A stretch of DNA of 63,984 nucleotides, filler included. It is 6 parts of 6 records of this genome, joined end to end, with 100 filler letters (N's around TTAATTAATTAA, not from the genome) between each part and the next. Parts side by side here need not be neighbours in the genome. Positions count along the whole stretch, not along the records: positions 13,890 to 26,409 come from SRR31147125_12398; 5 more parts are not named here. One strand, 5' to 3'. A program made the translations under genes and the position numbers. Shown here piece by piece: positions 1-22,562 of the stretch. The notes under the pieces were generated by a model. It saw only the letters and a program-made list of their open reading frames with translations, was not told the origin of the DNA and ran no database searches. Positions within the stretch are counted from its first letter, which is position 1; every line of letters begins with the position of its first letter.

Positions 1-2
1 CC

Positions 3-2407: not shown

Positions 2408-2440
2408 AGAACAAAAATGACGCACTATAAGGTATGAAAA

Positions 2441-3553
2441 ATGACCATTGAAATCCCATTGATCAAGCCCTATCTCAATGACGAGATGAAAAAAGAGGTA
2501 CTTGATGTACTTGACAGCGGTTATTGGACGGAAGGCGAGGTTACTCGTCAATTTGAAAAAGCTGTAAAAGAATATTTGGGTGCAAAGAACGTACTTGCTG
2601 TATGTAATTGTACGGTAGGTCTTGAAATGGCACTACGAGCGCTGAATATCGGTCCGGGGGACGAAGTCATTGTACCGGATTACACCTATCCGGCCACAGC
2701 GGCTGTCGTCTGCATCGTCGGTGCAACCCCGGTGATTGTGGATGTCCGGAAGGACAGTATGCTTATAGATATGGAAGAGCTTGAAAGTGCCATCACCTCT
2801 AAGACTAAAGCGGTGATTCCGGTCTCTCTCTTTGGAAATCCTTTGGATTATGAACGTTTATTGGGCATAAAACAGAAATACGGTATTTGGATTATAGAAG
2901 ATGCCGCATGTTCCCTGGGTGCGGAATTTGATGGCGTCAAAATAGGGAATCAGGCGGATATCACTGTCTTCAGTCTCCACCCCCGAAAATTTATCACAAC
3001 GGGAGAAGGGGGACTTGTCACCACCAACGACGACGATCTTGCCCTTTGGATGAAGTCGTATAAACATTTTGGAATGGCTCTCCAGGATACCCAAGGTCAT
3101 CCAACTTTTGAACGAATCGGAACCAACTACAAACTGAGCAATCTTCAGGCTGCGTTGGGGCTTGTACAGATGAGGCATGTAGAGAAACTACTCTCTAAAA
3201 GACGCAAGTTTGCTTTTCAATATTATGACGCTTTAAAAACAGTTGAGGGAATTTCCATTCCCCAAACCGTTAAAAAAGGGAAACACTCATTTCAATCTTG
3301 CTGTATTTTCATTGAAAAGAGAGATCTCATTATTAAATCCCTTGCCAAAGCAGGAATACAAACTCAAATCGGGACATACTCTTTACACATGCAAAAAGCG
3401 TTTCGCCAACAATCAAATTGCATTATTTCTCGTACAATGGAGAAAAGCAAATTTGCTTACAATCACTGTCTAACTTTGCCTTTGTTCAATGAAATGACCT
3501 CAACCACACAAAATTATGTCATTAAAAAACTTATCGACATTACAAACGATTAA
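2441..3553 (+). CDS. DegT/DnrJ/EryC1/StrS PLP-dependent sugar aminotransferase
   Basis: IGPGDEVIVP, IEDAACSLG, FSLHPRKFITTGEGG and GTNYKLS motifs. Confidence 0.93.
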   Translation: MTIEIPLIKPYLNDEMKKEVLDVLDSGYWTEGEVTRQFEKAVKEYLGAKNVLAVCNCTVGLEMALRALNIGPGDEVIVPDYTYPATAAVVCIVGATPVIVDVRKDSMLIDMEELESAITSKTKAVIPVSLFGNPLDYERLLGIKQKYGIWIIEDAACSLGAEFDGVKIGNQADITVFSLHPRKFITTGEGGLVTTNDDDLALWMKSYKHFGMALQDTQGHPTFERIGTNYKLSNLQAALGLVQMRHVEKLLSKRRKFAFQYYDALKTVEGISIPQTVKKGKHSFQSCCIFIEKRDLIIKSLAKAGIQTQIGTYSLHMQKAFRQQSNCIISRTMEKSKFAYNHCLTLPLFNEMTSTTQNYVIKKLIDITND

Positions 3554-3558
3554 AACAT

Positions 3559-4629
3559 TTGATTCGCCATACAATACCGAAACTAATAACGAACGTATCA
3601 AGCCATCTGATGCAACAGAGAGGAGATGAATTCCCAACTTTGACTACCATGATAGAATTGCAAGCAGATGTTTTTCATTATTTAAATTTACAAGAGAAAA
3701 GGAACCAATCTCGTTGCTTTAAAGCACACTATCAAACGCCAATGGTATTCAGTGGCGTCTTAGGTTGGCAAGTCAGTCCAAACAGAACCATTTTCAACGA
3801 TAAAAAAACGGCCTGCGACTCTAGCCAACTCCATGCATATGGTGAAGATACAATCGGCTTGTTCGGAGGTTCCACTGCATGGGGCTGGGGATTACCCAAA
3901 CAATCAAATATGTTTGCTGATATTATTGCCCAAAAAAAAGGGATCACAATCAAAAATTACTCGCAGCCTGCATACAATTTGTACAAATGTTCATCTCAAA
4001 TACGCTTACTCTCCCTTTCCGGGACGCTTCCGAAAAAAAACATCATTTATTTTGGAATTAATGAAGCGTTTTGCTTTTCAAAAGGAATGCCTCTTTTCGA
4101 ATCTCCCAAAGATTGTTCAATCAAAAAGAACGCGGGATCATTTGAGATATTTTACTTTTCAAGAAAAATGACAATAAAAAAATGGTTACGCGTCATCAAA
4201 AACCATGCCTCACATGAGCAGCCATCAAAACCAATTCAGCCACCCATCGATTTCCTTGATCGGCAAATGGACTTTCTTTTCCGACTGATAGATGAAATTA
4301 TCTATTATTGTGGTGGAAAAAAAAACATTGCCTTTGTTCTTGAGCCGGCACTTTTTTTTAAACCTCTCCTTTCACCATCCGAAGCTCGATACATTAAAAA
4401 TTACACGGCATATGTGCCAAAGACTATCTATACCTACACCTATCTTTATGATAAATTACTAACCTATGCCTTACAAAAAAAATGGATAATGATTGATACA
4501 AGACCAATCCTCCACGGATTGCAGGAACCGTTATATTGGGATTATTGTCATCCGAGCGCCACTCTCAGCAAACTATTGGCAACCAACCTAAACAAAAATT
4601 TATCAATGTGGCTCTCGACTGAGGGATAA
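3559..4629 (+). CDS. SGNH/GDSL-like hydrolase domain protein
   Basis: FGGSTAWG (block I), YFGINE (block III) and DYCHP (block V). Start codon uncertain. Confidence 0.6.
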   Translation: MIRHTIPKLITNVSSHLMQQRGDEFPTLTTMIELQADVFHYLNLQEKRNQSRCFKAHYQTPMVFSGVLGWQVSPNRTIFNDKKTACDSSQLHAYGEDTIGLFGGSTAWGWGLPKQSNMFADIIAQKKGITIKNYSQPAYNLYKCSSQIRLLSLSGTLPKKNIIYFGINEAFCFSKGMPLFESPKDCSIKKNAGSFEIFYFSRKMTIKKWLRVIKNHASHEQPSKPIQPPIDFLDRQMDFLFRLIDEIIYYCGGKKNIAFVLEPALFFKPLLSPSEARYIKNYTAYVPKTIYTYTYLYDKLLTYALQKKWIMIDTRPILHGLQEPLYWDYCHPSATLSKLLATNLNKNLSMWLSTEG

Positions 4630-4888
4630 AATAGGTCCTTTACTCCATAAGAGCCCATTACACATTATAAACATTCTTTGAAAAACTGAGATATCAATAT
4701 TGCTCTGAAGAATATAAGAGCCTGAATTTCTAAACAGGCTCTAGTACAATCGGGCGTTAATTGTCATATGCCTTGGTTTCATTGAAAACGGGGGTTCAGC
4801 CCTCAAAAAGCACTCTGTAATTTACTCCAAACTGTACGAGAACATCATACAGCGCAGATTTGAATTCAACAAAATAGAGCAACTCATT

Positions 4889-5977
4889 ATGGCAGAACAA
4901 CTCACAATTTTAGTCACGGCTGTTTCAGGAACCAATACTGGAACCCAAATTCTTGAGGCTCTGGAAATGGCTAATAAACGCTATAACGTAATAACAGCGG
5001 ATATCAACCCCCAGGCATTCGCCTCGACCCTTCCCAATACGTTCTACACGTTGCCACCAGCCAAAGATAAAAGCTATCTCCATGCACTGCTTGAAGTGTG
5101 CCAAAAAGAACACGTACAAGCCGTAGCACCGGGATCTGAACCGGAATTGTCTCTTTTAGTACAAAAGAAAAAAGAACTTGAAGCACACTCGATAACACTC
5201 TTGGCAAACACTTCTGATGTGGTTAAGATCTGCCAAGATAAAATTGAGACCATTCAATTTCTTTCCGAGCACAATTTTCCATATTTACCGACGACCGTCA
5301 TTGATTTTTCACAGCCGCCTAAGGAAATGACCCATCGTGTTTTATCAACCCTTCGACTTCCCATTGTACTAAAACCATATCGAAATACAGGTGGATCAAA
5401 CAATGTCTACCTAATTCAAGAGCGCCATGAGTTACCCATTTATCATCAGCTTCTTAAACATATGAATATCCCGTTCATCGCTCAGGAATATGAAGGAAAT
5501 TCCGACAACGAATACACTGTCGGAGTGATGTCTGGACCGGATGGACACGCATTCAGCTCATTTGCGCTCAAACGAAAAATCGATACAACGTTGACACGCA
5601 AACTTCATGAAAAAAATCGTAATAAAAGTCGTATCAAAGACGATTACCTGACCATTTCATCCGGCATTTCTCAAGGATTTGTTGATGATTACCGCGACAT
5701 ACGCCTTTTTTGCCAAACTGTAGCCAATACACTGGGATCGACCGGCCCTTTGAATATCCAGTGCCGTAAAACCGACCGGGGGATCATGATTTTCGAAATC
5801 AACCCTCGTTTTTCAGGTACCACATCGATCCGTGCACTATGTGGTCACAACGATTTGGATTTGATCATCCGTCGCCATATTTACCATGAGAACATTTCTC
5901 AACCACGCTATAAACGCGGACTTGTCATCCGCTCTCTTCACAATAGACTTTTGGAGATTGACAATGAACAAACGTGA
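4889..5977 (+). CDS. ATP-grasp protein (carbamoyl-phosphate synthase large-chain-like)
   Basis: PGSEPEL, CQDK, PIVLKP...GGS, QEY...EYTV and NIQ...IFEINPRFSGT motifs. Confidence 0.88.
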   Translation: MAEQLTILVTAVSGTNTGTQILEALEMANKRYNVITADINPQAFASTLPNTFYTLPPAKDKSYLHALLEVCQKEHVQAVAPGSEPELSLLVQKKKELEAHSITLLANTSDVVKICQDKIETIQFLSEHNFPYLPTTVIDFSQPPKEMTHRVLSTLRLPIVLKPYRNTGGSNNVYLIQERHELPIYHQLLKHMNIPFIAQEYEGNSDNEYTVGVMSGPDGHAFSSFALKRKIDTTLTRKLHEKNRNKSRIKDDYLTISSGISQGFVDDYRDIRLFCQTVANTLGSTGPLNIQCRKTDRGIMIFEINPRFSGTTSIRALCGHNDLDLIIRRHIYHENISQPRYKRGLVIRSLHNRLLEIDNEQT

Positions 5978-7220
5978 CTCAACTATCACTCATCACAAGC
6001 GATTTAACAGCTTAGACTATCTGATTCGAGACCTTTGTACTCAGTTCCGTCGACTCTCTTTTGGGCATACCGTATGGAGAGGTTCAACATACTGTCCATA
6101 CCCACCTAGAAAAATTGCCATTGAACCCAGTTCATTTTGCAATCTCAATTGTATCCATTGCGCCCATGGAATCGGTTCGGATGGGAAAGAACGCTTTCGC
6201 CGTAAAAAGAGTTTATTAGACTTCGATTTATACAAAAAGATAACTGACGAAGCCTCCCAATTCAAATACTCCACCCGGTTTGTTTTCGCCCTCATGGGTG
6301 AGCCGTTGATGAACAAAAAATTTGTTGAAATGATTGCATATGCTCACAAAAAAGGTGTCTGGACACAACTGAACACCAATGCGGTATTATTGGATCCACA
6401 CACGGCTGAATTGCTTATTGATGCCGGTCTTGACATGATTTATCTTTCATTGGATGGGATAACCAAAGAAACCTATGAAAAAATCAGACAACGTAGTGAC
6501 TTCTCAAAAGTTTATGAAAATGTCATCAATTTTATTGAACTGAAATTTAAAAAAAACGCAAAAGATCTAATCATCCACGTTGGTATGACCGGTGAGGCTG
6601 AAAATAGTCATGAACTCGATATCTTTTTCCGAGAAATGCAGAAACTTCCAGTCAACGGTGTGTACAGCCCACTACTTTTCAATTGGAATGGCGAAATTGA
6701 ATGGGCCAACAGTGAATTGGAAAAATTAAACCGCCTCAATACAGGCCAACGCGCACCGGCATGCAACCCTACGTTCGATATGTGCGGTATACAGGCCAAT
6801 GGCAATTTTACAGCCTGCATATATGATCATGAAGGAAAACATATTTCCGGCAATGTAAAAGACAACACCATACTTGAACTATGGAACAACAAAAGAACCC
6901 GCCGACTCAGGAAAGCCGTTTTAGATGGCAAATATTCTGAGGTTGAAAAAAATGGTCCACTTTGTTCTATGTGCACTCTTAAATACAACCCTGTATATCA
7001 AATCGACAATCGGTTACTTGGAAATCTAAAAAACACCGCACAATGGAGTAGTAAGGCTTTAATAGAATTTTTCGACACCCCGCTTCGTCATCGCCGATTA
7101 AACAAAAAAGCAGCATGGTTGATGGCCAATAAAGAGGCATTTTTAAATGACTTGAATGCCAATCATTATTCTCAGAAAAAAATCGATATGATGAAGTCAG
7201 GGATCGCGGCGTCATATTGA
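5964..7220 (+). CDS. Radical SAM protein with SPASM/twitch domain
   Basis: CNLNCIHC motif, GEPL, LNTNA, SLDG...YEKIR, and C-terminal Cys (ACNPT...ACIYD...GNVK...CSMC). ATG 5964 follows GGAG. Confidence 0.9.
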   Translation: MNKRDSTITHHKRFNSLDYLIRDLCTQFRRLSFGHTVWRGSTYCPYPPRKIAIEPSSFCNLNCIHCAHGIGSDGKERFRRKKSLLDFDLYKKITDEASQFKYSTRFVFALMGEPLMNKKFVEMIAYAHKKGVWTQLNTNAVLLDPHTAELLIDAGLDMIYLSLDGITKETYEKIRQRSDFSKVYENVINFIELKFKKNAKDLIIHVGMTGEAENSHELDIFFREMQKLPVNGVYSPLLFNWNGEIEWANSELEKLNRLNTGQRAPACNPTFDMCGIQANGNFTACIYDHEGKHISGNVKDNTILELWNNKRTRRLRKAVLDGKYSEVEKNGPLCSMCTLKYNPVYQIDNRLLGNLKNTAQWSSKALIEFFDTPLRHRRLNKKAAWLMANKEAFLNDLNANHYSQKKIDMMKSGIAASY

Positions 7221-7245
7221 TCAAAAATTAAAACGACGGCATACT

Positions 7246-8178
7246 ATGAATATTTTAATCACAGGCGCCACGGGTTTTTTAGGAGAACATCTCACTCAAA
7301 AATTACTTTACAAAGGCCATCGACTCACTCTGGTTTCCTCACGTCCCGTTCAAAACAAAAGAGATGGGGTAAAATATCTGCAATTAGATCTCACTGAAAA
7401 CTCAAGTGTCATCCCATTGTCAAGGCAATTAATGTCGTGCGATAAAGCCTTTTTTTTAGCTGCCGTACTTCCGCCTCATATAAATCATGCTGAAAAAACC
7501 ATAAAAATCGACCAACACAGTGCCCACGCATTGGCCTTGTCATCATGCCCGGAAGCAACCTATCTTTCAGGGTTGACTGTATTTGAACAACATGATGATT
7601 TCACTGTAGATGAAGAGACCAGTCCCAGTCATGATCTTCCACCTTATTTTGAAGCGAAACGAAGAGGGGAAAGCCTTTTCTTAGCGCTTAACAAAAAAAA
7701 AAACGCCGTAAAAGTATTGCGAATCAATGCACCATACGGTCCCGGCATGACACAGAGGCATGTCATTCCCACTTTTTTATCTCAAGCACTTCAAAATACT
7801 CCCCTCACTGTTTATGGAAACGGGCAACGCGTGCAACAATTTACATGGATTGGAGACATCATCCACATCCTCGCCTCCATAGAAAAAATCCCGACCGGAA
7901 TATCCCATTTCTGCGGCCCGGATCGAGTGACAATGAAAGCGTTGGCCAACATCTCTGCTTCAATTTGTAACTCCAACGCCCCCATCACTCATATGGGTGA
8001 TGATACAAGCCCGAGTTGCCCGCGGATCAAGCCGGATCGTCTGGAAGCAATTTGGCCTAGAGCAAAACGAACCTCTTTGCTCAAAGGGCTGTCGTACTTT
8101 TCCAATTTCATTTCAAACGCACAATACCCACCGAATATTGATTTCAAGCTATACCCGGGGAGGAAGACGTCTGCATGA
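7246..8178 (+). CDS. NAD-dependent epimerase/dehydratase
   Basis: ILITGATGFLG, YFEAK (YxxxK) and LRINAPYGPG motifs. Confidence 0.88.
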   Translation: MNILITGATGFLGEHLTQKLLYKGHRLTLVSSRPVQNKRDGVKYLQLDLTENSSVIPLSRQLMSCDKAFFLAAVLPPHINHAEKTIKIDQHSAHALALSSCPEATYLSGLTVFEQHDDFTVDEETSPSHDLPPYFEAKRRGESLFLALNKKKNAVKVLRINAPYGPGMTQRHVIPTFLSQALQNTPLTVYGNGQRVQQFTWIGDIIHILASIEKIPTGISHFCGPDRVTMKALANISASICNSNAPITHMGDDTSPSCPRIKPDRLEAIWPRAKRTSLLKGLSYFSNFISNAQYPPNIDFKLYPGRKTSA

Positions 8179-8909
8179 ACTCGATAACCGATTTGATTAT
8201 AACACTGGATGTTGATTGGGCTCCTGATTTCATGATTGACCACGTGGCTCAAATATTGATCGATGCCCAAGTCAAAGCCACATGGTTTGTCACACACCCT
8301 TCCAAATCAATAGACAGGCTTAATACATTTAACGATTTATTTGAATTAGGAATTCATCCCAATCCACTTCATGGCTCAACACATGGAAAGACAGAAGATG
8401 AGGTATTAACATATACCCGGAACCTGCTACCCCACGCCTCCAGCATGAGAACTCATGGATTGTATCAAACTTCCAATTGGTTGATAAAAGCCGCTAAAAA
8501 TTACGACATTAAAATCGATGTATCCCTGTTCCTCCCTAGGGCAACGCATTTACAGATGCATCAAATCAAATGGTATGGTGCATCCATATGGAGAATTCCC
8601 TATTTCTGGGCTGATGACTCTGAAATGTTTGAAAATCAGCCGTTATGGACACCATCAGATTCCCTGATAAAAACCCCTGGACTAAAAGTGTTTGATTTTC
8701 ACCCCATTCATATTATGTTGAATACTGACCGCTTTGAAAAATATGAATATCTCAAACAAATCCGTCCACTAGCGCTTTGGGATGAAGAGTTTACTCAAAC
8801 ACATGTTTATCACGGTTATGGTCCCAGAGTAATGTTTTTAGAACTTATGGAAAAACTGTCAGGAAAAGGAACCCAGATCAATGAATTGGTGGGTATGGAG
8901 AGGATATGA
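8175..8909 (+). CDS. Polysaccharide deacetylase-like protein (WbmS-like)
   Basis: TLDVDWAPD, ATWFVTH, FELGIHPN, RTHGL and FDFHPIH motifs. Confidence 0.8.
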   Translation: MNSITDLIITLDVDWAPDFMIDHVAQILIDAQVKATWFVTHPSKSIDRLNTFNDLFELGIHPNPLHGSTHGKTEDEVLTYTRNLLPHASSMRTHGLYQTSNWLIKAAKNYDIKIDVSLFLPRATHLQMHQIKWYGASIWRIPYFWADDSEMFENQPLWTPSDSLIKTPGLKVFDFHPIHIMLNTDRFEKYEYLKQIRPLALWDEEFTQTHVYHGYGPRVMFLELMEKLSGKGTQINELVGMERI

Positions 8910-9898
8910 GAGTTGCAATCATCGGACGCAGTCAAATCCTTTACGAGACGGCACTGACACTTCGTGAAAACGGCCATCAAATTTGTGTAATTATTACGGC
9001 AAAAGCGGCACCGGAATATAACCGAAACGAAGAGGATTTTAAAAAACTTGCAAAAAAATGCAATGCTCAATTCTTTTTGACAACCACTTTACAAGAAAAA
9101 TCCATTCTAAAGGCTTGTAAAGGGCTGGATATCGGAATAAGCATCAACTGGATTTCAATCATCCGCCAGGAAATCATCAATTCATTTCATTTAGGCATTC
9201 TCAACGCCCATCATGGAGATTTACCAAGATATAGAGGGAATGCATGTTCAAACTGGGCGCTCATCAATAACGAAAAGCAAGTGACCAATACAATACATTT
9301 CGTAGAAAGTGATCAACTCGATTGTGGAAGAATCATCTGCCAAAAACACTATCCTGTTAATCAAGAAACAACAATAACCGATATCTATCAATGGACGGAA
9401 CGGATCACCCCTTTGCTTTTTATCAACGCGCTTGACGAATTACATAAGAATAATTCACATATGCTGAAGTACGCTTCTTTGGAGGATCCTACAGCCTTTC
9501 GATGCTACCCACGACGACCTGAAGACGGATTTATTGAATGGACATGGTCAGTAAAGAAGATTCACAATCTCATCCGCGCAGTTTGCCATCCTTTCTCCGG
9601 AGCCTATACCTTTCATTGGTGCAACAATGAAGTGAAAAAACTTTTCATCTTAAAAAGTCGAATTGCAACCCTGACAACTCAAGATCTCGCCATTCCGGGG
9701 CATGTTTTGAAAAACAACAAGGAGACCGGAGAAAGTTTTATACAGTGCGGCGATGGCGTACTCGCCTTGTTGCAATGTCGTTATGAAGAGAGTATGGAAG
9801 CGTTTTCTCCAGGTGAGAAATGGCGATCAATTCGGATGAGATTAGGAGTCCGAGTTGAAGATTGGCTCTGGGCAATTACAAAACAGCAAAAAAATTGA
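8906..9898 (+). CDS. Sugar N-formyltransferase (Fmt/ArnA-like)
   Basis: LNAHHGDLPRYRGNA and LDCGRII motifs; C-terminal domain DGFIEW...IRAVCHPFSGA. Confidence 0.88.
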   Translation: MRVAIIGRSQILYETALTLRENGHQICVIITAKAAPEYNRNEEDFKKLAKKCNAQFFLTTTLQEKSILKACKGLDIGISINWISIIRQEIINSFHLGILNAHHGDLPRYRGNACSNWALINNEKQVTNTIHFVESDQLDCGRIICQKHYPVNQETTITDIYQWTERITPLLFINALDELHKNNSHMLKYASLEDPTAFRCYPRRPEDGFIEWTWSVKKIHNLIRAVCHPFSGAYTFHWCNNEVKKLFILKSRIATLTTQDLAIPGHVLKNNKETGESFIQCGDGVLALLQCRYEESMEAFSPGEKWRSIRMRLGVRVEDWLWAITKQQKN

Positions 9899-9915
9899 CT
9901 ACTTCAAGGATAGCA

Positions 9916-10329
9916 ATGAACGACCGAATGACTCATGGAGAGCGCCTCTTTTCACAAGGTAAAATTGATCAAGCGCTGACAATATTTAAAAAGATCATAC
10001 AAGATCATCCCGATAATTCCCAAGCTTATAACAATTTGGGGGTCATATATTTCCATCTGGATCAAATTGAATCTGCCATCACCGCTTTTTATCAGGCACT
10101 CAACATCAATCCGACTTACAAATGTGCGATTCTCAATCTCTCAGATATTTTCAAGAAACAACACCAAATCACATTACTGCAACCTATTTTGCAAAAAGCA
10201 CTATTGAATTCTCCAAAAGATGTTGATTTTGTCCGGTTGATGCAAGAAATATCTTCACACATTCCAAATTCAGACACCAATACAATCTCTTCCAACGTAT
10301 CGTTCCCCTCCTTTCTCAAGTTGCTTTGA
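9916..10329 (+). CDS. TPR-repeat protein (possibly the N-terminus of the downstream glycosyltransferase)
   Basis: GKIDQALTIFKKII...AYNNLGVIYFHLDQIESAITAFYQALNINP TPR repeats. Confidence 0.8.
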   Translation: MNDRMTHGERLFSQGKIDQALTIFKKIIQDHPDNSQAYNNLGVIYFHLDQIESAITAFYQALNINPTYKCAILNLSDIFKKQHQITLLQPILQKALLNSPKDVDFVRLMQEISSHIPNSDTNTISSNVSFPSFLKLL

Positions 10330-11524
10330 GTGAGAAGACAATTCTCCACTGCCCTTTTGAAATTGCCGGGAACATGGCAAGAATCACCAAACATCTCAAA
10401 CGCAACGGTATCAATGCAACGAGTGTCAATTATTATGATTCATGGCTCCAGTATCAATGCGATACCAATCTACATATAAATCGGCACTCATCTGAAAAGC
10501 AGCAGGAAATAATCGCTCAATTTGCAGTCGAGGCCATTGAAAAATACGACATCTTCCATTTTCACTTTTCACACTCTCTTTATCCGGACTTTAGGGACCT
10601 TGAGGAGATCAAAAAAAGAGACAAAAATATTGTTTTCTCATTTTGGGGAAGTGACCAAAGAAGTCCGGAGTGGATTTTATACCAGCAAGCACGCTTTCTC
10701 GGTTATGCCCCCCTAAGCCTCATTTTATCACCTTAAACCAATATCATACCCATAAACTCATCAATCGATATGCCGATGTCATGCTGGGGACAACCTGTAT
10801 CCCGCGAGGCGTATTCATTCCGGGAATGGTCGATGCCCAAGAGTGGTGCATTGAAGAAAAGAATCGAATCATCGATAAAAATAAAATCACAAAAAAACCA
10901 GAAATCACATACTTTCTCCATGCACCGTCAAATAATTGGAAGAAAGGGTCTTCCATTATTCTGAATCTTTTTGATGAGCTAAAAACCGAAGGAGCCCCCA
11001 TTGAATTACTGCATGTCAATAAATTGCCCCCAAAAAAAGCCAAAGAAATTTATGCCTATGCCGACTATGCCATTGACCAAGTGGGTATCGGGACATTTGG
11101 CCTGTTTGGTTTAGAGATGATGTGCTGGGAAATTCCGGTGTTGGCCTATCATGTCCCCCTTTTTGACAAGATGAGAAACTATCCACCGGCTATACCAATC
11201 ACCAAAGAAAACTTTAAACGTCAAATGTTACGATGTATTGAGATGAAAAAAACAGAAGAGATAAAAACCCTTCAAAAACAATCACGTAATTGGATATTGA
11301 AAAATGCGGATATCTCTTCATCCATATCGCAATATATCCAAATATACCAAAATCTGGCAATCGGAAATTCGATCAAACAACATGCCAATAAATCATGGTA
11401 TGATCAAGAGTACAAACTACAGCAGGGGATCAAGTCGGATTTCTATAACTACATGATAGAACACAATGTATTTCAAAAGTTGAATCAACCCATTCCGGAA
11501 TATGACAAACGCCTTTACACTTGA
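10326..11524 (+). CDS. Glycosyltransferase-like protein (GT-B fold), frameshifted at C6 run 10708-10713
   Basis: YDIFHFHF...FWGSDQR in the first half; LHAPSNNWKKGS...ADYAIDQ...GLFGLEMMCWEIPV in the second. One extra C restores the frame. Confidence 0.75.
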
Positions 11525-13789: not shown

Positions 13790-13889
13790 NNNNNNNNNNN
13801 NNNNNNNNNNNNNNNNNNNNNNNNNNNNNNNNNTTAATTAATTAANNNNNNNNNNNNNNNNNNNNNNNNNNNNNNNNNNNNNNNNNNNN
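13790..13889. other. Artificial contig spacer
   Basis: N-run with central TTAATTAATTAA; composition and gene content change abruptly across it. Confidence 0.98.
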
Positions 13890-14226
13890 GGCCTTCATAA
13901 GCAATAGAGGTAAACGCCTCATCCTCTTCGGTGACAAAGGTAGAGGCAATAACTGGAAAGTCGATATGTACTGTAGTCTCAGCACCCGGAATCTTATTAC
14001 CCAGAATCACTGCTCCCGGTGTGTGATGCTCGGTAGTGGTTCTACCGATCAGCGGAAAAGTGGTTGACTTACCGTGGGTAAGTGACTTGGACTGGTGCTT
14101 GCCGTCCATAACACAGAGTGTGTCACGGTATGCCATAACACCCGGCATGAATACATCTTTGAATAGCTCCATATCATCAGCTCCAAGGTTCTTGCTGCCG
14201 AGGTAGCTGATATTGAAATCTGTCAT
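13890..14226 (-). CDS. T7 gp10-like major capsid protein, N-terminal part (truncated by contig end)
   Basis: ELFKDVF...GKSTTFPLIGRT...TPG resembles T7 gp10 GKSAQFPVLGRT; follows the scaffold gene; RBS AGGAG. Confidence 0.85.
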
Positions 14227-15544: not shown

Positions 15545-17197
15545 TTAAGCAGGCTGTGCTGCTGGTGCTGGAAGTTGTGGCTGTGCTGACGCACCCTGAC
15601 CACCCTGACCACCTTGAGGAATCATCTTCCCGATAAGTCCTGCTGCCGGCCCTGCCATTTTATTCATCATCTCCATCTCCTGAGCTTTCTGCATCTGTTC
15701 TTTTGCTTCTGCCTCCATCTGCTCATATTCCTCATCAGTAAGGAGGAAATCGTCATTCTCCAGCTGGAGAGCTGCTTGCATCATACGGAGAAGTTTGAGT
15801 GGTTTGATAAATTTGAGCATTGCATCCTTGCCGACCATCTTCTCACCCAGCTCAGCAAACTCGACAATCTTCTGCAAGTCCTGCCCTCTGCCGAGTGCTT
15901 CCAACCCGGTCACGATAGTAGTCTCGACCGTTCCCTCCGGCAGTCTATCAAGCTTCCCCAGAGCAATCATACGTTGTTCCAGCAGCCCGACCACCTGCGG
16001 CTGTAGCTCTGAGGCAAAGATTGCATAGACATTACCGATCTGCTCCTCCAGTGCCTGAATCATCATGCGAATTTCATACGAAGTAACCCGCTCACCCTTG
16101 CGCTGCACAGCGCTCCGCATCAGAAACGCCCGCTGCATCTTCTCTTCAAGAGCCGCAATCATCCTCTCAGCCACGCCGTAGTCAGCCCCTTTGTCAGCCC
16201 GGAGCATAGTCACGTCATTATGCAGATCACCGGGAATATACGACCCGTTCTTGGCTCTGACAAGATCACGCCGCTTGGTAGTGCCTCCCGGCTTGACTCC
16301 CATAATAGACAAGGACGCAATCTCTGCGCCCTCGGTTACCGCTCTCGTTAAAATATCAAGGACAATCAGCCCCCCGAGAATATCCTCGACATAGCCACGC
16401 CCCCAGTCCTCACCGTCAAGATGCGACCAACGAACCGGAACATACGGACACTTCTTAAACTTAGCCCATTTCCCGATCTTCTCCCTGCCGATACCATGCT
16501 CAGGCAAGACAACACCGTTGATCTCCTGCTTGACCGTCCAGAACTTGGTCTCACTGTCAAACTCAACGCTGGTATAGAGAGTCGCCTTTTTGTTGATATC
16601 TGTATCAGACTTATCATCTAGCAAACCACAATAAGCCAAGACCACATCATCAAGCATCGAGAGCAATAAATCCTCATTGATAATAACTTGCAGCAGCTCA
16701 CCTGCTGGAGTCCGACGCACAACATATCTATCCATACAGTAATACCGCAGGGGCTCGTCGGTCGGAGGAATATACATCAGCACATTACCACCGATTATCG
16801 AATGCTCACAGACCTTTCCCGTAATCACCCGCATCTTGATAGTCTCGCAGTACCGACGAATCTTTTTCTCACGCTCGGAGAGCATGACCTCGACCTTGGT
16901 CAGAGCGTCCTGATCGCTAGCGTTATCTCTGGCATCATCTGTCAGCACATAACGAAACCACGGACTCCCGACTGGAAAGAGGATAGTGTTGAGCCTGCTG
17001 GCAAAGTTATTGATACCCTCCGCCCCGGTTGTCTGGTACGGCACTGGATAGTCGGTACTCCCGTCAGCCCCTTCTGGAGGCATAGCGGTAGGCTTGGTCA
17101 AGACAGAACAGGCTCTTGCTCGGCGGAGAAACGGTTCACGTGAAGCTTTGAGTTTGATAAAATCCCTTGCAATATCGCCTTTATCACTCTTATTCAT
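15545..17197 (-). CDS. T7 gp8-like portal (head-to-tail connector) protein
   Basis: PYQTTGAEGINNFASRL, PWFR, CPYVPVRW..LDGEDWGRG, GERVTSYEIR and TGLEALGRGQDL motifs. Confidence 0.95.
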   Translation of the reverse strand: MNKSDKGDIARDFIKLKASREPFLRRARACSVLTKPTAMPPEGADGSTDYPVPYQTTGAEGINNFASRLNTILFPVGSPWFRYVLTDDARDNASDQDALTKVEVMLSEREKKIRRYCETIKMRVITGKVCEHSIIGGNVLMYIPPTDEPLRYYCMDRYVVRRTPAGELLQVIINEDLLLSMLDDVVLAYCGLLDDKSDTDINKKATLYTSVEFDSETKFWTVKQEINGVVLPEHGIGREKIGKWAKFKKCPYVPVRWSHLDGEDWGRGYVEDILGGLIVLDILTRAVTEGAEIASLSIMGVKPGGTTKRRDLVRAKNGSYIPGDLHNDVTMLRADKGADYGVAERMIAALEEKMQRAFLMRSAVQRKGERVTSYEIRMMIQALEEQIGNVYAIFASELQPQVVGLLEQRMIALGKLDRLPEGTVETTIVTGLEALGRGQDLQKIVEFAELGEKMVGKDAMLKFIKPLKLLRMMQAALQLENDDFLLTDEEYEQMEAEAKEQMQKAQEMEMMNKMAGPAAGLIGKMIPQGGQGGQGASAQPQLPAPAAQPA

Positions 17198-17206
17198 TGC
17201 CCCTCC

Positions 17207-17458
17207 TTAACTGAACAGGTTGAGACCTGTCTTCTTGGCTGTACCGCCAGTGCTGCCAGTACCGAGACCTAGAGGGTCGGATTTATCAATTCTGAGTGCA
17301 TCCTTACCTGACTTTTTCTTACTGTCATTATCATTGGTTACCAGATCGTCCTCCTCTTTCAGCTCAACTGCTTTCGCCGTCACAGGTGCTGGTGTCACTG
17401 GTGCTTGATAGATAGGAGCCGGTGTATCGCCGCCTCCACCTCCAAATAATCCGCACAT
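17207..17458 (-). CDS. T7 gp6.7-like small virion protein
   Basis: MC start, PAP motif and SGKDALRIDK resemble gp6.7; lies just upstream of the portal. Confidence 0.55.
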   Translation of the reverse strand: MCGLFGGGGGDTPAPIYQAPVTPAPVTAKAVELKEEDDLVTNDNDSKKKSGKDALRIDKSDPLGLGTGSTGGTAKKTGLNLFS

Positions 17459-17764
17459 TCACTCACCCTCCCCACTATACTTCGCCTTAAGTTCACCAAT
17501 CAGCTTCCGCCTACCGAGATATGCATAGAACTCCCACTCAGTCTCGCCAGTATGCCGCATACGCTCTGGATTATCCTTGTCAAGCTGCGCAACCAGCTCA
17601 CAGGCAAAATCCGGCATTTTATCCTCAGCAATCTCTGCCGGCGCTGTCTGCTCTGCCAGAAGAGTCTTCACCAGAGAACCGAGCTGATTCTCTACCGACT
17701 TCCCCAGCCCATCATTCTTGAGCTGACCCAGCGCATACTCAACAGCGCTTTGATTTTCGCTCAT
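17459..17764 (-). CDS. Phage hypothetical protein, first gene of the structural module
   Basis: 101-aa ORF with RBS AAGGAG; abuts the next gene. Confidence 0.7.
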   Translation of the reverse strand: MSENQSAVEYALGQLKNDGLGKSVENQLGSLVKTLLAEQTAPAEIAEDKMPDFACELVAQLDKDNPERMRHTGETEWEFYAYLGRRKLIGELKAKYSGEGE

Positions 17765-17815
17765 ATAATCTCCTTATCTAATACCTTTTATAAAAGACAA
17801 AACCGCTTCCGTCCT

Positions 17816-17861
17816 TCCCGTATTGAGCGGATAGACAAGTTGTACTATATTGAGCGGAATT
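17816..17861 (-). promoter_or_regulatory. Candidate phage-RNAP late promoter(s), tandem
   Basis: Minus-strand AATTCCGCTCAATATAG matches 13/17 positions of T7 AATACGACTCACTATAG. The core TCCGCTCAATA is repeated 27 bp downstream and followed by CGGGAAGG. Confidence 0.6.
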
Positions 17862-17911
17862 CATGAAACATTTGTTTTAATGAAAATTCATCAGTAATTT
17901 CACTAAAGGTA

Positions 17912-17939
17912 TTGACAAGTCAAAAGAAAAGGTTAATAT
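17912..17939 (+). promoter_or_regulatory. Candidate sigma70 promoter of the AT-rich cassette
   Basis: TTGACA-16nt-TAATAT. Confidence 0.5.
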
Positions 17940-18074
17940 GCATTAAATGATTTGATTTTTTAATTATATCTAAAGACTATAAATCCAAGTACCGATAAAC
18001 AATTATCGACACTTAGGTTATTTTTTTATGTGTGATAATTATATATAAATAAAATATAAAAATTTCGAAAAAAG

Positions 18075-18103
18075 TTGACTATTACAATAAAAGTTGATAT
18101 TAT
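18075..18103 (+). promoter_or_regulatory. Candidate sigma70 promoter of the AT-rich cassette
   Basis: TTGACT-17nt-TATTAT with a TGn extended -10. Confidence 0.6.
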
Positions 18104-18201
18104 AAATTTATTACTTGTTTCTAAAAAAGTCATTCTTATACACAATAAATAAGTAGAAGAAGATTTACACGAGATACCATTCGTGTATTGGAGATATAAA
18201 T

Positions 18202-18420
18202 ATGCTAGAGTCACTTAAAAACAGAATCCTAGAAAGAAGAAATTTGCCTGAAACTCATGCTCAAAAACCAATTTTTGAGATGTTATCTTCTCTCAGTTCA
18301 AGACCTAAATTCATCTCAAAATCTCCAATTATTGGAAGAGGGAACATCTTCTGTAAAAATCATACTATTTCTGAAGAGCAAGTAAATTCTGACTTTGCTA
18401 AAGCAGCAAAAGGCTTTTAA
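18202..18420 (+). CDS. Small basic hypothetical protein (72 aa), cassette gene 1
   Basis: RBS GGAG upstream; contains PIIGRGN...TISEEQVNSDF. Confidence 0.7.
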   Translation: MLESLKNRILERRNLPETHAQKPIFEMLSSLSSRPKFISKSPIIGRGNIFCKNHTISEEQVNSDFAKAAKGF

Positions 18421-18444
18421 TGCAGGCAAAGGCAACATATAGTA

Positions 18445-19151
18445 ATGGATATTGAAAACGATAAAGATAAAAAGGAATTTTTAAGTTTTACTCAGATGAA
18501 TTTTTTCCCATCTATTCTAAGCTTTCAGCAAACGCCGAGCTAAGTCAAAAAACACTTGAAGAAATTTCTGCTGCTTTTAGTCTTATTGCTGATTATGAAT
18601 TCTACAAATCTAAACCTGTTACAGAGTGCTTTGCATTAAAAATAAATGCTTATGAATATGGGATATCATGTCTTAAGCTAGCTTCTGCACATATGTTGAA
18701 ATACATTGTTATTCCTAAAATAACACTTGCAAAACAATACCTAAAACCAATCTATTCAAAATATTCAAACAAATCAAATAAAGCGCCTAAAGAAGCAAAA
18801 GAACTAATTAAATTATATCCAATTATCAAAAAATATCTTACTAATGAAGAACATTTATTGAAGGAATTAGAGAGCAAAACAAAAAAAGATAATAAAGAGG
18901 AAACAGATTATATTGAGATCAATAAACTAATAGAAAAAAGATACAAAAACATCTTGCATTTAAATAAATCATGTAATATATTTATTAATAGTTATTACTA
19001 TAATCCAGAATCAAAGTATTTATTTAAATTTCCACGTTTACTAAAAAGATTTAAACAAAAACTTAACAATCATACTAAGATTGAATGTATCATAGGAACT
19101 ATAGGGGGGTTAATAATAAGCTTTATTTTTCATTATTACTCAACACGATAA
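18445..19151 (+). CDS. Membrane-anchored helical protein, degenerate paralogue of the next gene; frameshift in T-runs near 18478-18489
   Basis: The frame of ORF 18693-19151 is open back to 18471 and ATG 18445 is one base out of frame. C-terminal hydrophobic helix IECIIGTIGGLIISFIFHYY. Confidence 0.65.
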
Positions 19152-19193
19152 CCTTTAAAATAATCTTAGCTCTCAATATGAAATGCAACTCAA

Positions 19194-19826
19194 ATGAATG
19201 AAATAGATAATTTCGAGAAAGTATATGAATTACATAATACAATAAAACTTGTAATAGATGAAGTACATGAAACTCTAAACTACCTGCCTCGTGAATGCCT
19301 TACAGAAATTCATTCTTGTCTATCACATTTAGCTAGACACCACAATGATCCTAAAAGCGATTCAGAAAAGCAAGCAAGTAAAAAAGCTGGCTCTCACCTC
19401 AAAAGATGTGCTTATGATCTTTATAAGATCATAAGCAGAGATACCATTGATAAGTTTAAACAACTTGAAAATAATGACATACAATATATTCTATCTGAAA
19501 GTAAATTTAACGAATTTCGAAAATTAAAAGACTCCATTATCAATAAAACTATTATTGCAAGAAAAGAAGAAGGACGTAGTTCTGAAAATTGGAAAAAAGC
19601 ATTTGATAAATGGGATGAAGTATTTATTGATTGCCAAAAAGCCAGAAATAATTATTTTACCAACAAAGAACTAAACAATAAAATGGACTTCGTTGATTCC
19701 ACTGAAAAACTAATCTTCAAAAAAAATTCTTGGGTAAATATAATAATAAGCCTAATAATAACAGTTATCACTGGTGCTGTTGTATATTTTTTTGGAACTA
19801 CAATAATAAAAATCATCACCCCATAA
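19194..19826 (+). CDS. Membrane-anchored helical protein with ExxxxxxHxxR and HxxRxxxD motifs
   Basis: TEIHSCLSHLAR and SHLKRCAYDLYK; C-terminal TM helix WVNIIISLIITVITGAVVYFFG. Confidence 0.8.
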   Translation: MNEIDNFEKVYELHNTIKLVIDEVHETLNYLPRECLTEIHSCLSHLARHHNDPKSDSEKQASKKAGSHLKRCAYDLYKIISRDTIDKFKQLENNDIQYILSESKFNEFRKLKDSIINKTIIARKEEGRSSENWKKAFDKWDEVFIDCQKARNNYFTNKELNNKMDFVDSTEKLIFKKNSWVNIIISLIITVITGAVVYFFGTTIIKIITP

Positions 19827-19847
19827 ACCAATAAACACAATAAATTA

Positions 19848-22562
19848 TCAACTAAAGATATACTCCGACTCCAACGCCTGCCGGACATCCAACTCACCCA
19901 TCTCTGGAACTTCCGGCAGCAGCATCCGTTGAGCCTCAGTCAAAGACTTAGAAACGTAATTCCTTAATTCTGTCAACTGGCAGGTACTGTATATCCTCAC
20001 AAACTCCTCCCTGAGAACCTTTGCCAGCAAGCCCGATCTGCTCGGTAATGTGCCGTAACTGTCATGAATCAGGCTGAGTGGCGCATTCCCCATCCGCAGA
20101 ACCACCATCCAGAGCATAGCAGCATCAAAAGAATGGGTGTAATTGGCTGCCATACCGGAGCGGATTTTCTTCTTATTGACCCGTCCGGTATCGGCGGTAA
20201 AGCTGGTCTGGATACGGTGAGAACCGACCACGGTATTTATCCGCATTACCTCGGTACACTCCTTCCGGTGCTGCACAGGAAAACCGAGCGGAGTCTGCCA
20301 CTCCATTCCCGAAACCCCAGTCTTACAAAAACAGCTCAACCGCCGTTCCTTCCGCTGGGATTCGGTCTTGAACTCACAGATACACCGGCAGAGCGATTGC
20401 CCGCATTTCTCACACCGTGAACACTTCGGTCTGATCGTCACCACGTCAGCGACATCCTTGAGCCAGTCGAGATAAACAAAAGCACCCGGAATAATGCTCA
20501 GAGTCGCCCGGTGGACAATCGGCTCAAGAAACATACTAGCCCGCCAACGCAAATCCTCAGTCAAGCAGTATTCAGCTCCCAACTTCTCAATATTCTTGAC
20601 AATAGCATCAGATATCTGCTCCTTACGGGTAAAACTACTGACATCATAGGTACAGGTCATTACTGGTCTCTTGGTCATACTCCGGTCGATCTGCCCGGCA
20701 AGCAGTCTGGAAAAGAGTGTCTGTTCAACCTTATTCCTCATCTCTGTCCAGTACTTGGTATCCTTCTCGTTCTTGTCGGAAATCCGCTTCCCGATCTCCG
20801 CCTCCAACTCTATAAGGTCTGCCGTATTCATGTCAGAATACAGCCCCAGTTTATCCGCGCTCTCCACCCAGTGAGCCAGCTCTTCATTCGCCCTGTCAGC
20901 AATATCCTGATAGAGATCATGGAGTCCAGGACTCTCCGCATCGTTGACAACCGAAGTCCTGACCGCAAGGTCTCTGTCCTTGAGCATCCCTGCTACATGC
21001 TGCAACGCATTCTGACAGCCATCCTGAGGTATACTAATATGACAGATATGCTCCTCACCGTTCTCCAACGCTCCAGCGACCTCGAAGCAGAACGCCAAAA
21101 ACTGCCACGGTTTATCTGCACCTGTCCAGAAATTCCGGTTCTCACTCCGGTACGGGTCTGCCGCACACTCTGCCATAATTGCTGCATGCTCCTCCGCCCA
21201 GACAATCCGTTCCTCCCGGCTGACCTTATCAATCCCGTAGACACTCGCCGCACCGTACAGCAGCCAGTCAATCCCCTCCGAGCTACCAAGGGGCTCGCCG
21301 TGAGCAAACTCCAGCATAGCCTTACTGATATCATCACCTTGAGGAGAGAGAAAGCGACCGCCATAGACCGGATATCCCTGACCTCTGGTGTCGACTGCGT
21401 ACCCGAAGTACAGCTCATCCTCATAATAATACTTCTCAGCCGTGGTGAGAACTCCCTGTAAATGGCTATAACGTGAGATCATTTCACTACGAAGCTTCTG
21501 CGCCTGCTGGAATGCTGCAGTATTGGGTGAGAGCTTACGCAGACTCGGCAGTTCAGCAGTATCGATAATCGGCAACGCCCATTTCTTACCACCACCAAGA
21601 CGGGTACACTCTTTGACGACCTCGCAAAGATTCTGATTGACCCTCCACGCCGTCCTCTGCGCCCTGTTGACCGCCGCAAACATCTGCGGATACTCTCCCT
21701 TCCGTTCCTCCATCTGCCGCAAATACGACCTATTCCACGACCTGATAAAACGGGTACGCTTGCGCAGCTCCGCTGTCTGGTAGACCCCTCCGGAAATACC
21801 CTTCCAGTCTACCGGCGGTACGATACTCGGTGGATACTGCGGTGCAAAGAGTGAGCGCAGCTCCTCCCGGCGGTTTGATTCTTCCATAAATTCTAGTGTG
21901 ATCTGCAGCCGGTGTGAAGTATGTCTCTTCGAGGCTGGCTTGAATGGTATGCGTTCAATCCACTTCGCAGAAACCTGACTCGCCATATGCAGCAGCATCA
22001 GCCCTGCCTTGACCTTCTCTTTATAGGAGAGAGTCTGCGGATTTATCTGGTCTTTGTACCAGCGTTCAAGGAATGATTTCTTGACCTTCTTCTTCTGGAA
22101 CTCACTCGGCGCACGTCTCATTCGCCGTTCCATTGCTTCAAAAGCCCCAGACTCATACTCCTTGAGAGAGTTGGCGTTGAACTGGTCGAGCAGATCGTCA
22201 CCAAGCATATTTGCACGCTTGGCGAGATTGTCCCCAGCGAGAGCGCCGTCGATAAGATTTTTGGCTGTGATAAAGGCTGTGATGTCGGCAGGCAGCTGAG
22301 CGATAAAACGGGTACAGAGCGCCAACCTCCCCGTTCTGTGCCTTTCAATCTCTGCCAGAATCCGTTCATGGAGAGGAGTAACTATCGAATAGATAAAGTC
22401 ACGCCCTGTACCTGTATTGCTGCCGTGTCCGTTCTTCTTGAGTCGCCGCAGATTACTGAAATACTCCAGCTGAGTCACCCCTATCGCTTCCAGCTCCAGC
22501 TCCCGCTGACGACTATATTTCTCTGCCCCGGTCTCCTGAGCAGTCAGTACTTCTGTTGTCAT
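19848..22562 (-). CDS. T7-like single-subunit DNA-directed RNA polymerase
   Basis: PPVDW, SPQGDDISKAML, YGIDKVS..ER, ADKPWQFLAFCFE; motif A DGCQNALQH, motif B RSMTKRPVMT, WQTPLGFPV, motif C IHDSYGT; C-terminal YIFS. Confidence 0.97.
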   Translation of the reverse strand: MTTEVLTAQETGAEKYSRQRELELEAIGVTQLEYFSNLRRLKKNGHGSNTGTGRDFIYSIVTPLHERILAEIERHRTGRLALCTRFIAQLPADITAFITAKNLIDGALAGDNLAKRANMLGDDLLDQFNANSLKEYESGAFEAMERRMRRAPSEFQKKKVKKSFLERWYKDQINPQTLSYKEKVKAGLMLLHMASQVSAKWIERIPFKPASKRHTSHRLQITLEFMEESNRREELRSLFAPQYPPSIVPPVDWKGISGGVYQTAELRKRTRFIRSWNRSYLRQMEERKGEYPQMFAAVNRAQRTAWRVNQNLCEVVKECTRLGGGKKWALPIIDTAELPSLRKLSPNTAAFQQAQKLRSEMISRYSHLQGVLTTAEKYYYEDELYFGYAVDTRGQGYPVYGGRFLSPQGDDISKAMLEFAHGEPLGSSEGIDWLLYGAASVYGIDKVSREERIVWAEEHAAIMAECAADPYRSENRNFWTGADKPWQFLAFCFEVAGALENGEEHICHISIPQDGCQNALQHVAGMLKDRDLAVRTSVVNDAESPGLHDLYQDIADRANEELAHWVESADKLGLYSDMNTADLIELEAEIGKRISDKNEKDTKYWTEMRNKVEQTLFSRLLAGQIDRSMTKRPVMTCTYDVSSFTRKEQISDAIVKNIEKLGAEYCLTEDLRWRASMFLEPIVHRATLSIIPGAFVYLDWLKDVADVVTIRPKCSRCEKCGQSLCRCICEFKTESQRKERRLSCFCKTGVSGMEWQTPLGFPVQHRKECTEVMRINTVVGSHRIQTSFTADTGRVNKKKIRSGMAANYTHSFDAAMLWMVVLRMGNAPLSLIHDSYGTLPSRSGLLAKVLREEFVRIYSTCQLTELRNYVSKSLTEAQRMLLPEVPEMGELDVRQALESEYIFS

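Follow-up and report, generated by a model that had tools for sequence, protein, structure and literature searches.

An AT-rich three-gene cassette in a phage-type block joins a conserved two-gene module to a diverged paralogue in which nearly all conserved charged residues of the family are gone: a possible toxin-antitoxin-like system

What are two neighbouring genes doing side by side when their products appear related, one of them is interrupted by a frameshift and this same one lacks His, Arg and Asp residues of the other? The question is raised by a cassette of three open reading frames (ORFs), here called S, A and B, in a stretch of DNA of 63,984 nucleotides (the window, made of six parts of the records of one genome joined end to end with filler letters). 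A reading made from the sequence only had taken B for an enzyme with a metal-binding four-helix or HEPN-like fold and A for its pseudo-enzyme partner in a membrane-anchored heteromer, with the small upstream protein S as a possible ligand, substrate or antitoxin. The analysis reported here yielded three solid new results, namely an S-B module made of two unnamed protein families, a corrected position of the frameshift in A and a three-gene form that is unique among 131 loci. The overall explanation that we prefer, to which we give about an even chance, is that of an AT-rich accessory insert in which a core two-gene S-B module, to be read in a toxin-antitoxin (TA)-like manner, is accompanied by an open paralogue, A, that is dead at the conserved residues. 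The features of the cassette are the following.

17800..19840, strand opposite to the flanking phage-type genes: AT-rich island with the cassette, from the GC profile
17866..18201, + strand: non-coding leader, candidate sigma-70-like promoters; GGAG lies 8 nt ahead of the start codon of S
18202..18420, + strand: S, 72 amino acids (aa), soluble, 'IGRGN' small-protein family, conserved upstream partner of the B family
18445..19151, + strand: A, broken frame, about 235 aa when read through; diverged paralogue of B with a predicted C-terminal membrane helix
18478..18482, + strand: T5 homopolymer, frame break of A, from the frame analysis and a contig of the public run X1 with one extra T
19194..19826, + strand: B, 210 aa, unnamed family, predicted five-helix bundle plus C-terminal membrane helix, with E38, H45, H68, R71 and D75 present

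The similarity between A and B is not demonstrable from the two sequences alone, since pairwise BLASTP aligned them in a different register with a non-significant E-value of 1.1. Word-index searches for close homologues found none for B and none for A (216 aa from 18501), and close relatives were found neither for B in viral contigs nor for A in metagenome and viral contigs. With B as seed, HMMER was run exhaustively against 1.84 billion representatives and returned 96 proteins at E ≤ 0.001; of these, 14 reached ≤ 1e-10, and the best match had an E-value of 1.7e-17. Alignment A1 comprises B and 78 of these homologues (79 sequences), the 18 matches kept out being fragments, long multi-stretch hits and the two longest fusion forms. 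A hidden Markov model (HMM) of the 78 homologues, with B itself left out, was then used for testing A. The long frame of A (18471-19148) scored 26.0 bits (E 3e-10 for a single comparison), and A read through with an X at the break scored 25.2 bits over positions 4-56 of the family HMM, starting from its second residue. Aligned to the B family with hhalign, A gave a probability of 94.7% with an E-value of 6e-8 over 45 columns, so that the profile comparison of the two proteins, which the sequence-only reading had named among its checks, was significant. A mere chance resemblance of two AT-rich, helical ORFs rich in Lys, Ile and Asn, which we consider close to negligible, would be in line with the BLASTP result and with the composition bias terms of 5-9 bits in the HMM scores, but it has to face four further observations. 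The 216-residue part of A from 18501 scored 15.3 bits, which none of 2000 composition-preserving shuffles reached (maximum 10.7 bits); the reversed sequence gave 0.5 bits; of the 284 segments obtained by six-frame translation of the window, B (147.6 bits) and A were the only ones to score, the next one reaching 3.5 bits; and the match begins at the N-terminus of the family and stays collinear up to the membrane helix once MAFFT --add has placed A in the family alignment. By profile match and collinear layout A is thus placed in the B family, and the homology of A and B, as distant members of one protein family, can be taken as confirmed at the level of sequence comparison.

Of the two segments that had initially been aligned between the proteins, the first lies inside this significant stretch, whereas the second (GISCLK... 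in one protein and AGSHLK... in the other) was reproduced exactly by MAFFT --add but carries no significance of its own, HMMER being silent there. The relationship is a distant one, with 36 identities in 181 aligned columns between A and B (20%) and an average identity of A to the family of 18%. In the N-terminal part, A is 29% and B 27% identical to the family and the two are only 18% identical to each other. A and B are therefore old members that diverged separately, rather than the products of a recent duplication. In the ESM Atlas only unnamed clusters were matched, and the best match of A equals the second match of B in size, member count and taxa line (0.85 and 0.94, respectively), which we treat as a lead only.

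In order to place B in its genomic context, loci were fetched with a sub-alignment of its 20 closer homologues (A2): 49 from species-representative genomes, two from IMG/VR viral contigs and 80 from metagenomes, for a total of 131; one of the two IMG/VR loci is the same prophage region as the genome locus L047. The ORF directly upstream of the B homologues was found by phmmer to be homologous to the S of the window. In an alignment of 36 loci and S (A3), G45, R46 and G47 never vary and form part of a '...P-x-I-G-R-G-N-V...' stretch, and S, which has I-G-R-G-N, belongs to this family of soluble proteins of about 80 aa with a Gly-Arg-Gly turn. Searching six-frame translations with HMMs, we found S directly upstream of B in 48 of the 49 genome loci and in all 77 metagenome or viral loci with at least 260 nt of upstream sequence, five of 82 being too short. 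The two genes are therefore adjacent, co-oriented and kept together in 125 of 126 assessable loci, as is typical of type II-like TA pairs. The A3 model was built from the 36 genome loci; neither the remaining 12 genome loci nor the 77 fetched later contributed to it. S is accordingly a real conserved partner gene, and, as judged from these loci, the S-B pairing is strict and S is the obligate neighbour of the family.

The sole exception among the 49 genome loci is L036, where no S lies upstream and the gene (4140-5492) encodes a fusion, with an HD-CE domain (PF24391, E 2e-16) on the N-terminal side of the B domain. The same architecture occurs in the library protein P0015, and neither of the two fusions has a membrane helix. 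Next to the fusion gene of L036 lie a gene for a DUF1156 protein, downstream, and an upstream ORF of 313 aa without a Pfam match, which we take to resemble NucS/DUF91-type nucleases. HD-CE proteins are thereby linked to the B family, although the proteins of the window have no HD-CE domain. The window itself differs from the other loci in having A between S and B: a second copy of the family was found in none of the 131 other loci, which were fetched with patterns demanding the conserved motifs and in which a copy scoring like A would have been seen. A pseudo-enzyme partner, as proposed from the sequence, is consequently not a regular feature of the family. At L028, L038 (the same as L198) and L199 S is intact, while the gene of the B family is broken up into two or three fragments that lie in different frames; these could be either decayed copies or assembly errors.

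The residues that distinguish B from A are those that the family keeps. E38, H45, H68, R71 and D75 are invariant in all 79 sequences of A1, and D44 (75/79), R48 (75/79) and K78 (77/79) are nearly so. B holds all five invariant residues, with Ser in place of D44, and its full-length match and these residues make it a member of the unnamed family. A keeps only E38 and K78, the MAFFT alignment giving H45L, R48D, H68C, R71L and D75H, and thus lacks the signature of invariant charged residues. The replacement of His, Arg and Asp in the first protein was in this way confirmed, with five of six conserved residues gone from A, and the motifs E-x6-H-x2-R and H-x2-R-x3-D are kept across the homologues (79/79 apart from the R48 position), which was the outcome that the sequence-only reading had staked itself on.

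The AlphaFold model of B obtained with alignment A1 (pLDDT 94.8, pTM 0.80), which superseded a poor single-sequence model (pLDDT 50.3), predicts helices at residues 7-28, 33-51, 58-93, 102-128 and 133-155 and a long one at 158-208 that ends in a hydrophobic segment. E38, H45 and R48 are on helix 2 and H68, R71, D75 and K78 on helix 3, with i, i+3/4, i+7 spacing, and from the helix limits the conserved residues would form one polar stripe on each of these adjacent helices. Of the 79 family members, 71 have a C-terminal hydrophobic segment, which usually begins some 29 residues before the end, the other eight being mostly short and probably partial sequences. In B the Kyte-Doolittle mean over 19 residues (KD19) is 2.45 at residue 183, in A it is 1.72 at residues 204-222 of the 18471 frame, and S has no hydrophobic segment. 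The proposed membrane anchoring therefore held, as both A and B end in a C-terminal membrane helix predicted from hydropathy. Foldseek found nothing similar to the B model at E ≤ 0.001 in PDB or BFVD, and VIA-align, run on 48161 chains, yielded generic helical bundles only, mostly over residues 70-160, with Z up to 11.5, a Z of about 13 being expected by chance for helical models. The family profile matched the pore-forming domain of colicin Ib (PDB 8iom) marginally (E 0.049, 16.3 bits). The match lies over amphipathic helices and the hydrophobic segment and excludes the conserved motifs; no colicin pore domain is among the listed structural matches and B has one hydrophobic helix instead of a buried hairpin, so that this is a lead only. 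A complex prediction for S with residues 1-182 of B, run with the alignments not used, gave a score of 0.00 with a poorly folded S and is evidence neither for nor against their binding.

A resemblance to the HEPN toxins and abortive-infection proteins (AbiU2, PF18734) is given by the small all-helical domain, by Arg and His on a helix, by the mobile or defence contexts of some loci and by L047, which lies beside an AbiU2 gene. The Arg of the HEPN motif R-x4-6-H is, however, not conserved. Five residues before H45 the family has Asn in 29, His in 21 and Arg in 15 of the 79 members, B having His, and its invariant set is instead E, H...H, R, D on two helices. None of the 79 members matched a HEPN Pfam model at E ≤ 0.01, and B and A had no match at E ≤ 1. 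No HEPN entry is among the listed Foldseek or VIA-align matches, lists that consist of generic helical bundles and cannot by themselves exclude HEPN. The label 'HEPN-like' is thus unsupported, and on these sequence data we would not file the B family under HEPN; as for the label 'enzyme', neither fold nor family gave evidence of catalysis or of metal binding.

The same evidence bears on the idea that B is a membrane-anchored enzyme, either a metal-binding bundle or a HEPN-like nuclease, with A as the dead partner in a heteromer and S as substrate, ligand or antitoxin. An invariant E, H, H, R and D with near-invariant D44, R48 and K78, set on two adjacent helices at i, i+3/4 and i+7, is what catalytic or metal sites look like; exactly these residues are missing in A while the scaffold is kept, and R-x4-H stands at the corresponding place in 15 of 79 members. 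Against it are the variable HEPN arginine, the lack of any HEPN Pfam match in the 79 members and of any enzyme fold among the listed structural matches, and the fact that the family is single-copy at the 131 other loci, so a heteromer cannot be its normal state. Two alternative outputs, membrane helix and HD-CE domain, are moreover more typical of a regulatory domain, a point that leaves an enzyme feasible. On balance we consider the enzyme with a dead partner unlikely.

If A is a member of the family without most of its conserved charged residues, is it still a gene? The frame that starts at ATG 18445 stops at 18541-18543, and the long frame opens after the stop at 18468-18470. The break had originally been put at the T6 run 18501-18506. 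Adding the long-frame residues upstream of that run raised the score of A from 15.3 to 26.0 bits; since these residues already match the N-terminus of the family, the break has to lie between 18471 and about 18482, and the first placement was not borne out. A slippery site or programmed frameshift at the T6 run was dropped because the family match begins upstream of it, and a break at the A5 run 18469-18473 is disfavoured by the X1 contig and by the alignment to family positions 4-56. Contigs of run X1 (depth 2-4) match 18467-19211 and parts of 17000-17437 with no substitutions, and their single difference is one extra T in the T5 run 18478-18482 (T6), which joins both frames. The run has no cover over 17484-17967, 18089-18451 and 19299-20600 and says nothing on those parts. 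As the interval in which an insertion would restore the frame is about 70 nt of the roughly 1000 nt covered, a coincidence has a chance of about 7%, and an extra T in this very place is suggestive, not proof. The alignment of the read-through protein to the family HMM from its second residue indicates that ATG 18445 is the natural start.

The frame of A is open for 226 codons at 25.6% GC, whereas in 20000 shuffles the longest open stretch was on average 48 and at most 133 codons. Deep divergence together with an open frame argues for selection on A, which is a 'dead' paralogue with a preserved open frame rather than a long-decayed pseudogene. The frameshift itself is probably trivial, A being in all likelihood an intact gene with a homopolymer length difference. 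That A is a dying duplicate without a role, the working unit being S and B as elsewhere, would fit with the frameshift in the window sequence, with the loss of five of six conserved residues, with the lack of detectable relatives of A itself and with the broken B genes of other genomes (L028, L038/L198 and L199). A long-dead gene would nevertheless be filled with stops, and no shuffle came near the open frame that A has despite being only 20% identical to B; its sole break is a difference of one base in a homopolymer, for which one public contig has the frame-restoring length; and the membrane helix and the N-terminal family pattern are kept. We regard such a pseudogene as quite improbable. 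Within A, the segments 18507-18527 and 18747-18767 are 76% identical over 21 nt and encode P-I-Y-S-K twice, 80 codons apart; the second copy weakly matches positions 19-38 of the family HMM and may be a small duplication or due to chance.

The S-B module is spread over many phyla, the genome loci belonging to Verrucomicrobiota, Planctomycetota, Armatimonadota, Sumerlaeota, Desulfobacterota, Leptospiraceae, Margulisbacteria, a few Proteobacteria and others. Among the 49 genome loci it is mostly chromosomal and non-phage, and two loci are on IMG/VR viral contigs. A Pfam scan of 128 neighbour ORFs at 47 loci found no recurrent third gene among them. Neighbours of mobile or defence type, which are listed below, occur at 12 of the 47 loci as a raw count.

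L002 and L044: HsdM/N6 methylases
L005: IS66 transposase
L007: PIN
L011 and L021: serine recombinases
L015 and L024: integrases
L019: MmeI-type enzyme
L036: DUF1156
L039: GmrSD
L047: lambda-type portal and AbiU2

The last of these loci, from Desulfogranum japonicum (L047 / L131), has its S-B pair in a 42-kb prophage predicted by IMG/VR, between the lambda-type portal gene and the AbiU2 (HEPN) gene.

Two-gene TA and abortive-infection modules with a membrane-acting component are the general class with which S-B can best be compared. As in these, a small gene is tightly linked to an effector-sized gene on one strand, and the spread is patchy, the neighbourhood variable and the carriage by phages or prophages, like decay, occasional. 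The order of the genes, with the small one first, fits as well and is not diagnostic. S differs in having no recognisable DNA-binding or antitoxin domain, and the likeness is one of gene arrangement and distribution. From the tight linkage, the patchy distribution, the variable and partly mobile or defence-type neighbourhoods, the occasional decay and the occasional phage carriage, we infer by analogy that the S-B module may work like a TA or abortive-infection pair, a proposal that we place somewhat short of an even chance. In B, a protein of about 200 aa with a predicted cytoplasmic five-helix bundle and a C-terminal membrane helix, the helical domain would then act as a sensing or switch domain that is held in check by S or responds to it, and the membrane helix would be the output, replaced by the HD-CE domain in one fused form. 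The occurrence of the same helical domain with either a membrane helix or HD-CE makes a sensing or switch domain more likely than an enzyme. A, which diverged anciently, retains the membrane anchor, a collinear layout as a whole and the helix pattern of the N-terminus. Having replaced five of the six conserved residues, it cannot take on the task of the charge cluster, whatever this may be, but might still assemble by way of its scaffold and membrane helix. It might, speculatively, be a non-responsive subunit or decoy that modulates B, or one that takes S away from B.

Several points weigh against this explanation. At 35 of the 47 surveyed loci the neighbours are only housekeeping or unannotated genes, and the signal of a defence island is modest. 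As a sequence pattern, the invariant His, Glu, Asp and Arg would fit a catalytic or metal site just as well, and no match, of fold or of family, suggests a function. In PADLOC-DB v2, S, A, B and 21 further homologues had only chance-level matches. The loci were fetched by patterns that require the conserved motifs, and divergent subfamilies, in which tandem copies could occur, are outside the sample. The intact allele of A is one contig at a depth of 2.4, from a run that is possibly the source sample of the window, and, no relatives of A itself having been found, selection on it is not directly measurable as the ratio of nonsynonymous to synonymous substitution rates (dN/dS).

Going further, S-B could be a new and widespread conflict system, for defence or addiction, built on an undescribed sensor or switch fold with a membrane-helix or HD-CE output, of which the window would show a rare three-gene form with A recruited as regulator or decoy; this we put forward tentatively and consider doubtful. 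As judged from the sequences, S-A-B is a good candidate for a conflict-type module of a new kind, with an active and a dead copy built into it. Should S-B be a TA or defence pair, two unannotated protein families, together with a new helical domain with an invariant charge cluster, would join the bacterial conflict systems, and the family is not a small one (at least 96 clusters at 50% identity, with 131 loci in many phyla). The three-gene form would in that case be a natural experiment, with copies that have and lack the conserved residues on the same scaffold beside a shared partner S, and would give direct handles on the role of the residues. Otherwise, the S-B pairing is strict enough for both families to be named, and the 'frameshifted' A is to be annotated as a probable intact gene with a homopolymer length difference. 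The S and B families are absent from Pfam, NCBIfam and PADLOC, and the literature that we searched has nothing on the S-B module, a description of which may exist elsewhere, and nothing of relevance on HD-CE proteins.

The cassette lies in DNA of a different make. GC is 20-34% per 200 nt at 17800-19840, against about 50% in the surrounding DNA, and the island holds the three + strand ORFs S, A and B. The genes of phage type around it are on the opposite strand.

13834-14226, - strand: major head protein match of only 130 aa (phrog_27239 and phrog_267, partial)
15545-17197, - strand: portal-type head-tail adaptor (phrog_449, E 1e-127)
15545-17764, - strand: one flank of the island, with two small ORFs and the portal-type head-tail adaptor
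19848-22562, - strand: single-subunit RNA polymerase (phrog_414, E 2e-161)

The flank with the portal-type adaptor also bears a head-assembly protein besides the 130-aa piece of the major head protein. No terminase or DNA polymerase PHROG match was seen in the phage-type block (about 13.8-31 kb), and matches further out in the window are to a nucleotide-sugar epimerase, an aminotransferase, a radical-SAM protein, an ABC transporter and a ribosome-hibernation factor. The block has the look of a segment of phage origin, not of a whole phage; it may be a remnant, given the partial head protein match, the missing terminase and DNA polymerase matches and the bacterial-type genes that flank it. INPHARED phages gave no match by DNA (17000-20800) or by protein (B), and E. 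coli genomes gave no DNA match. Neither S nor B was present in any of 80 loci around distantly related phage RNA polymerases, which marks the cassette as an accessory insert in the window, one that would have been acquired horizontally as an AT-rich element by a phage-derived block.

This location has to be weighed against a last alternative, in which the cassette is a phage device for lysis timing or superinfection exclusion (Sie), that is, a holin-antiholin-like pair or a membrane Sie protein with S as regulator. The place between RNA polymerase and portal genes in a phage-type block would suit it, as would two related single-pass membrane proteins of which one is 'active' and one altered, the two family loci on viral contigs and the match of B to phrog_9168 (E 1.8e-10, residues 17-143). 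By this match relatives of B are already catalogued in phage genomes, although only positions 128-256 of the 267-position profile are matched, the PHROG is without annotation and A does not match it. The module is, on the other hand, overwhelmingly chromosomal and non-phage in the 49 genome loci and absent from the RNA-polymerase phage loci. No endolysin, lysozyme, amidase or spanin-type Pfam family occurs among the 128 neighbour ORFs of the 47 loci, and no lysis-type gene was found in the cassette of the window. Typical holins, finally, are unlike A and B, which are tail-anchored proteins of about 200 aa with a large cytoplasmic domain. A lysis or exclusion device therefore seems very improbable, and the accessory insert with a TA-like S-B module remains the explanation that we prefer.

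Some minor observations concern the island and its surroundings. Beside the phage-type block, the + strand of window positions 1-11521 carries a run of genes of sugar-nucleotide or polysaccharide type, with two epimerase-like genes, an aminotransferase, a radical-SAM protein and a formyltransferase-like protein. The promoter candidates in the leader are at 17912-17939 and at 18075-18103, the latter with a TG extension; the scan gave 15 sites against 11.7 +/- 3.7 in shuffles, a count that is not significant. An imperfect direct repeat of 32 nt (18137-18168 and 19832-19863; 72%, with an exact core of 11 nt) is not above chance; its copies stand just upstream of S and just past the stop codon of B and could be the ends of the insert or an AT-rich coincidence. 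Inside B, over the codons of the conserved helix-3 motif, there is a perfect 13-bp inverted repeat with a 3-nt loop (19409-19437), which the scan flagged as terminator-like on the - strand. The segments 18041-18062 and 18976-18993 also match an 8245-nt contig of run X1 (depth about 2400) that is otherwise unlike the window and is probably an unrelated, abundant AT-rich replicon with short words in common.

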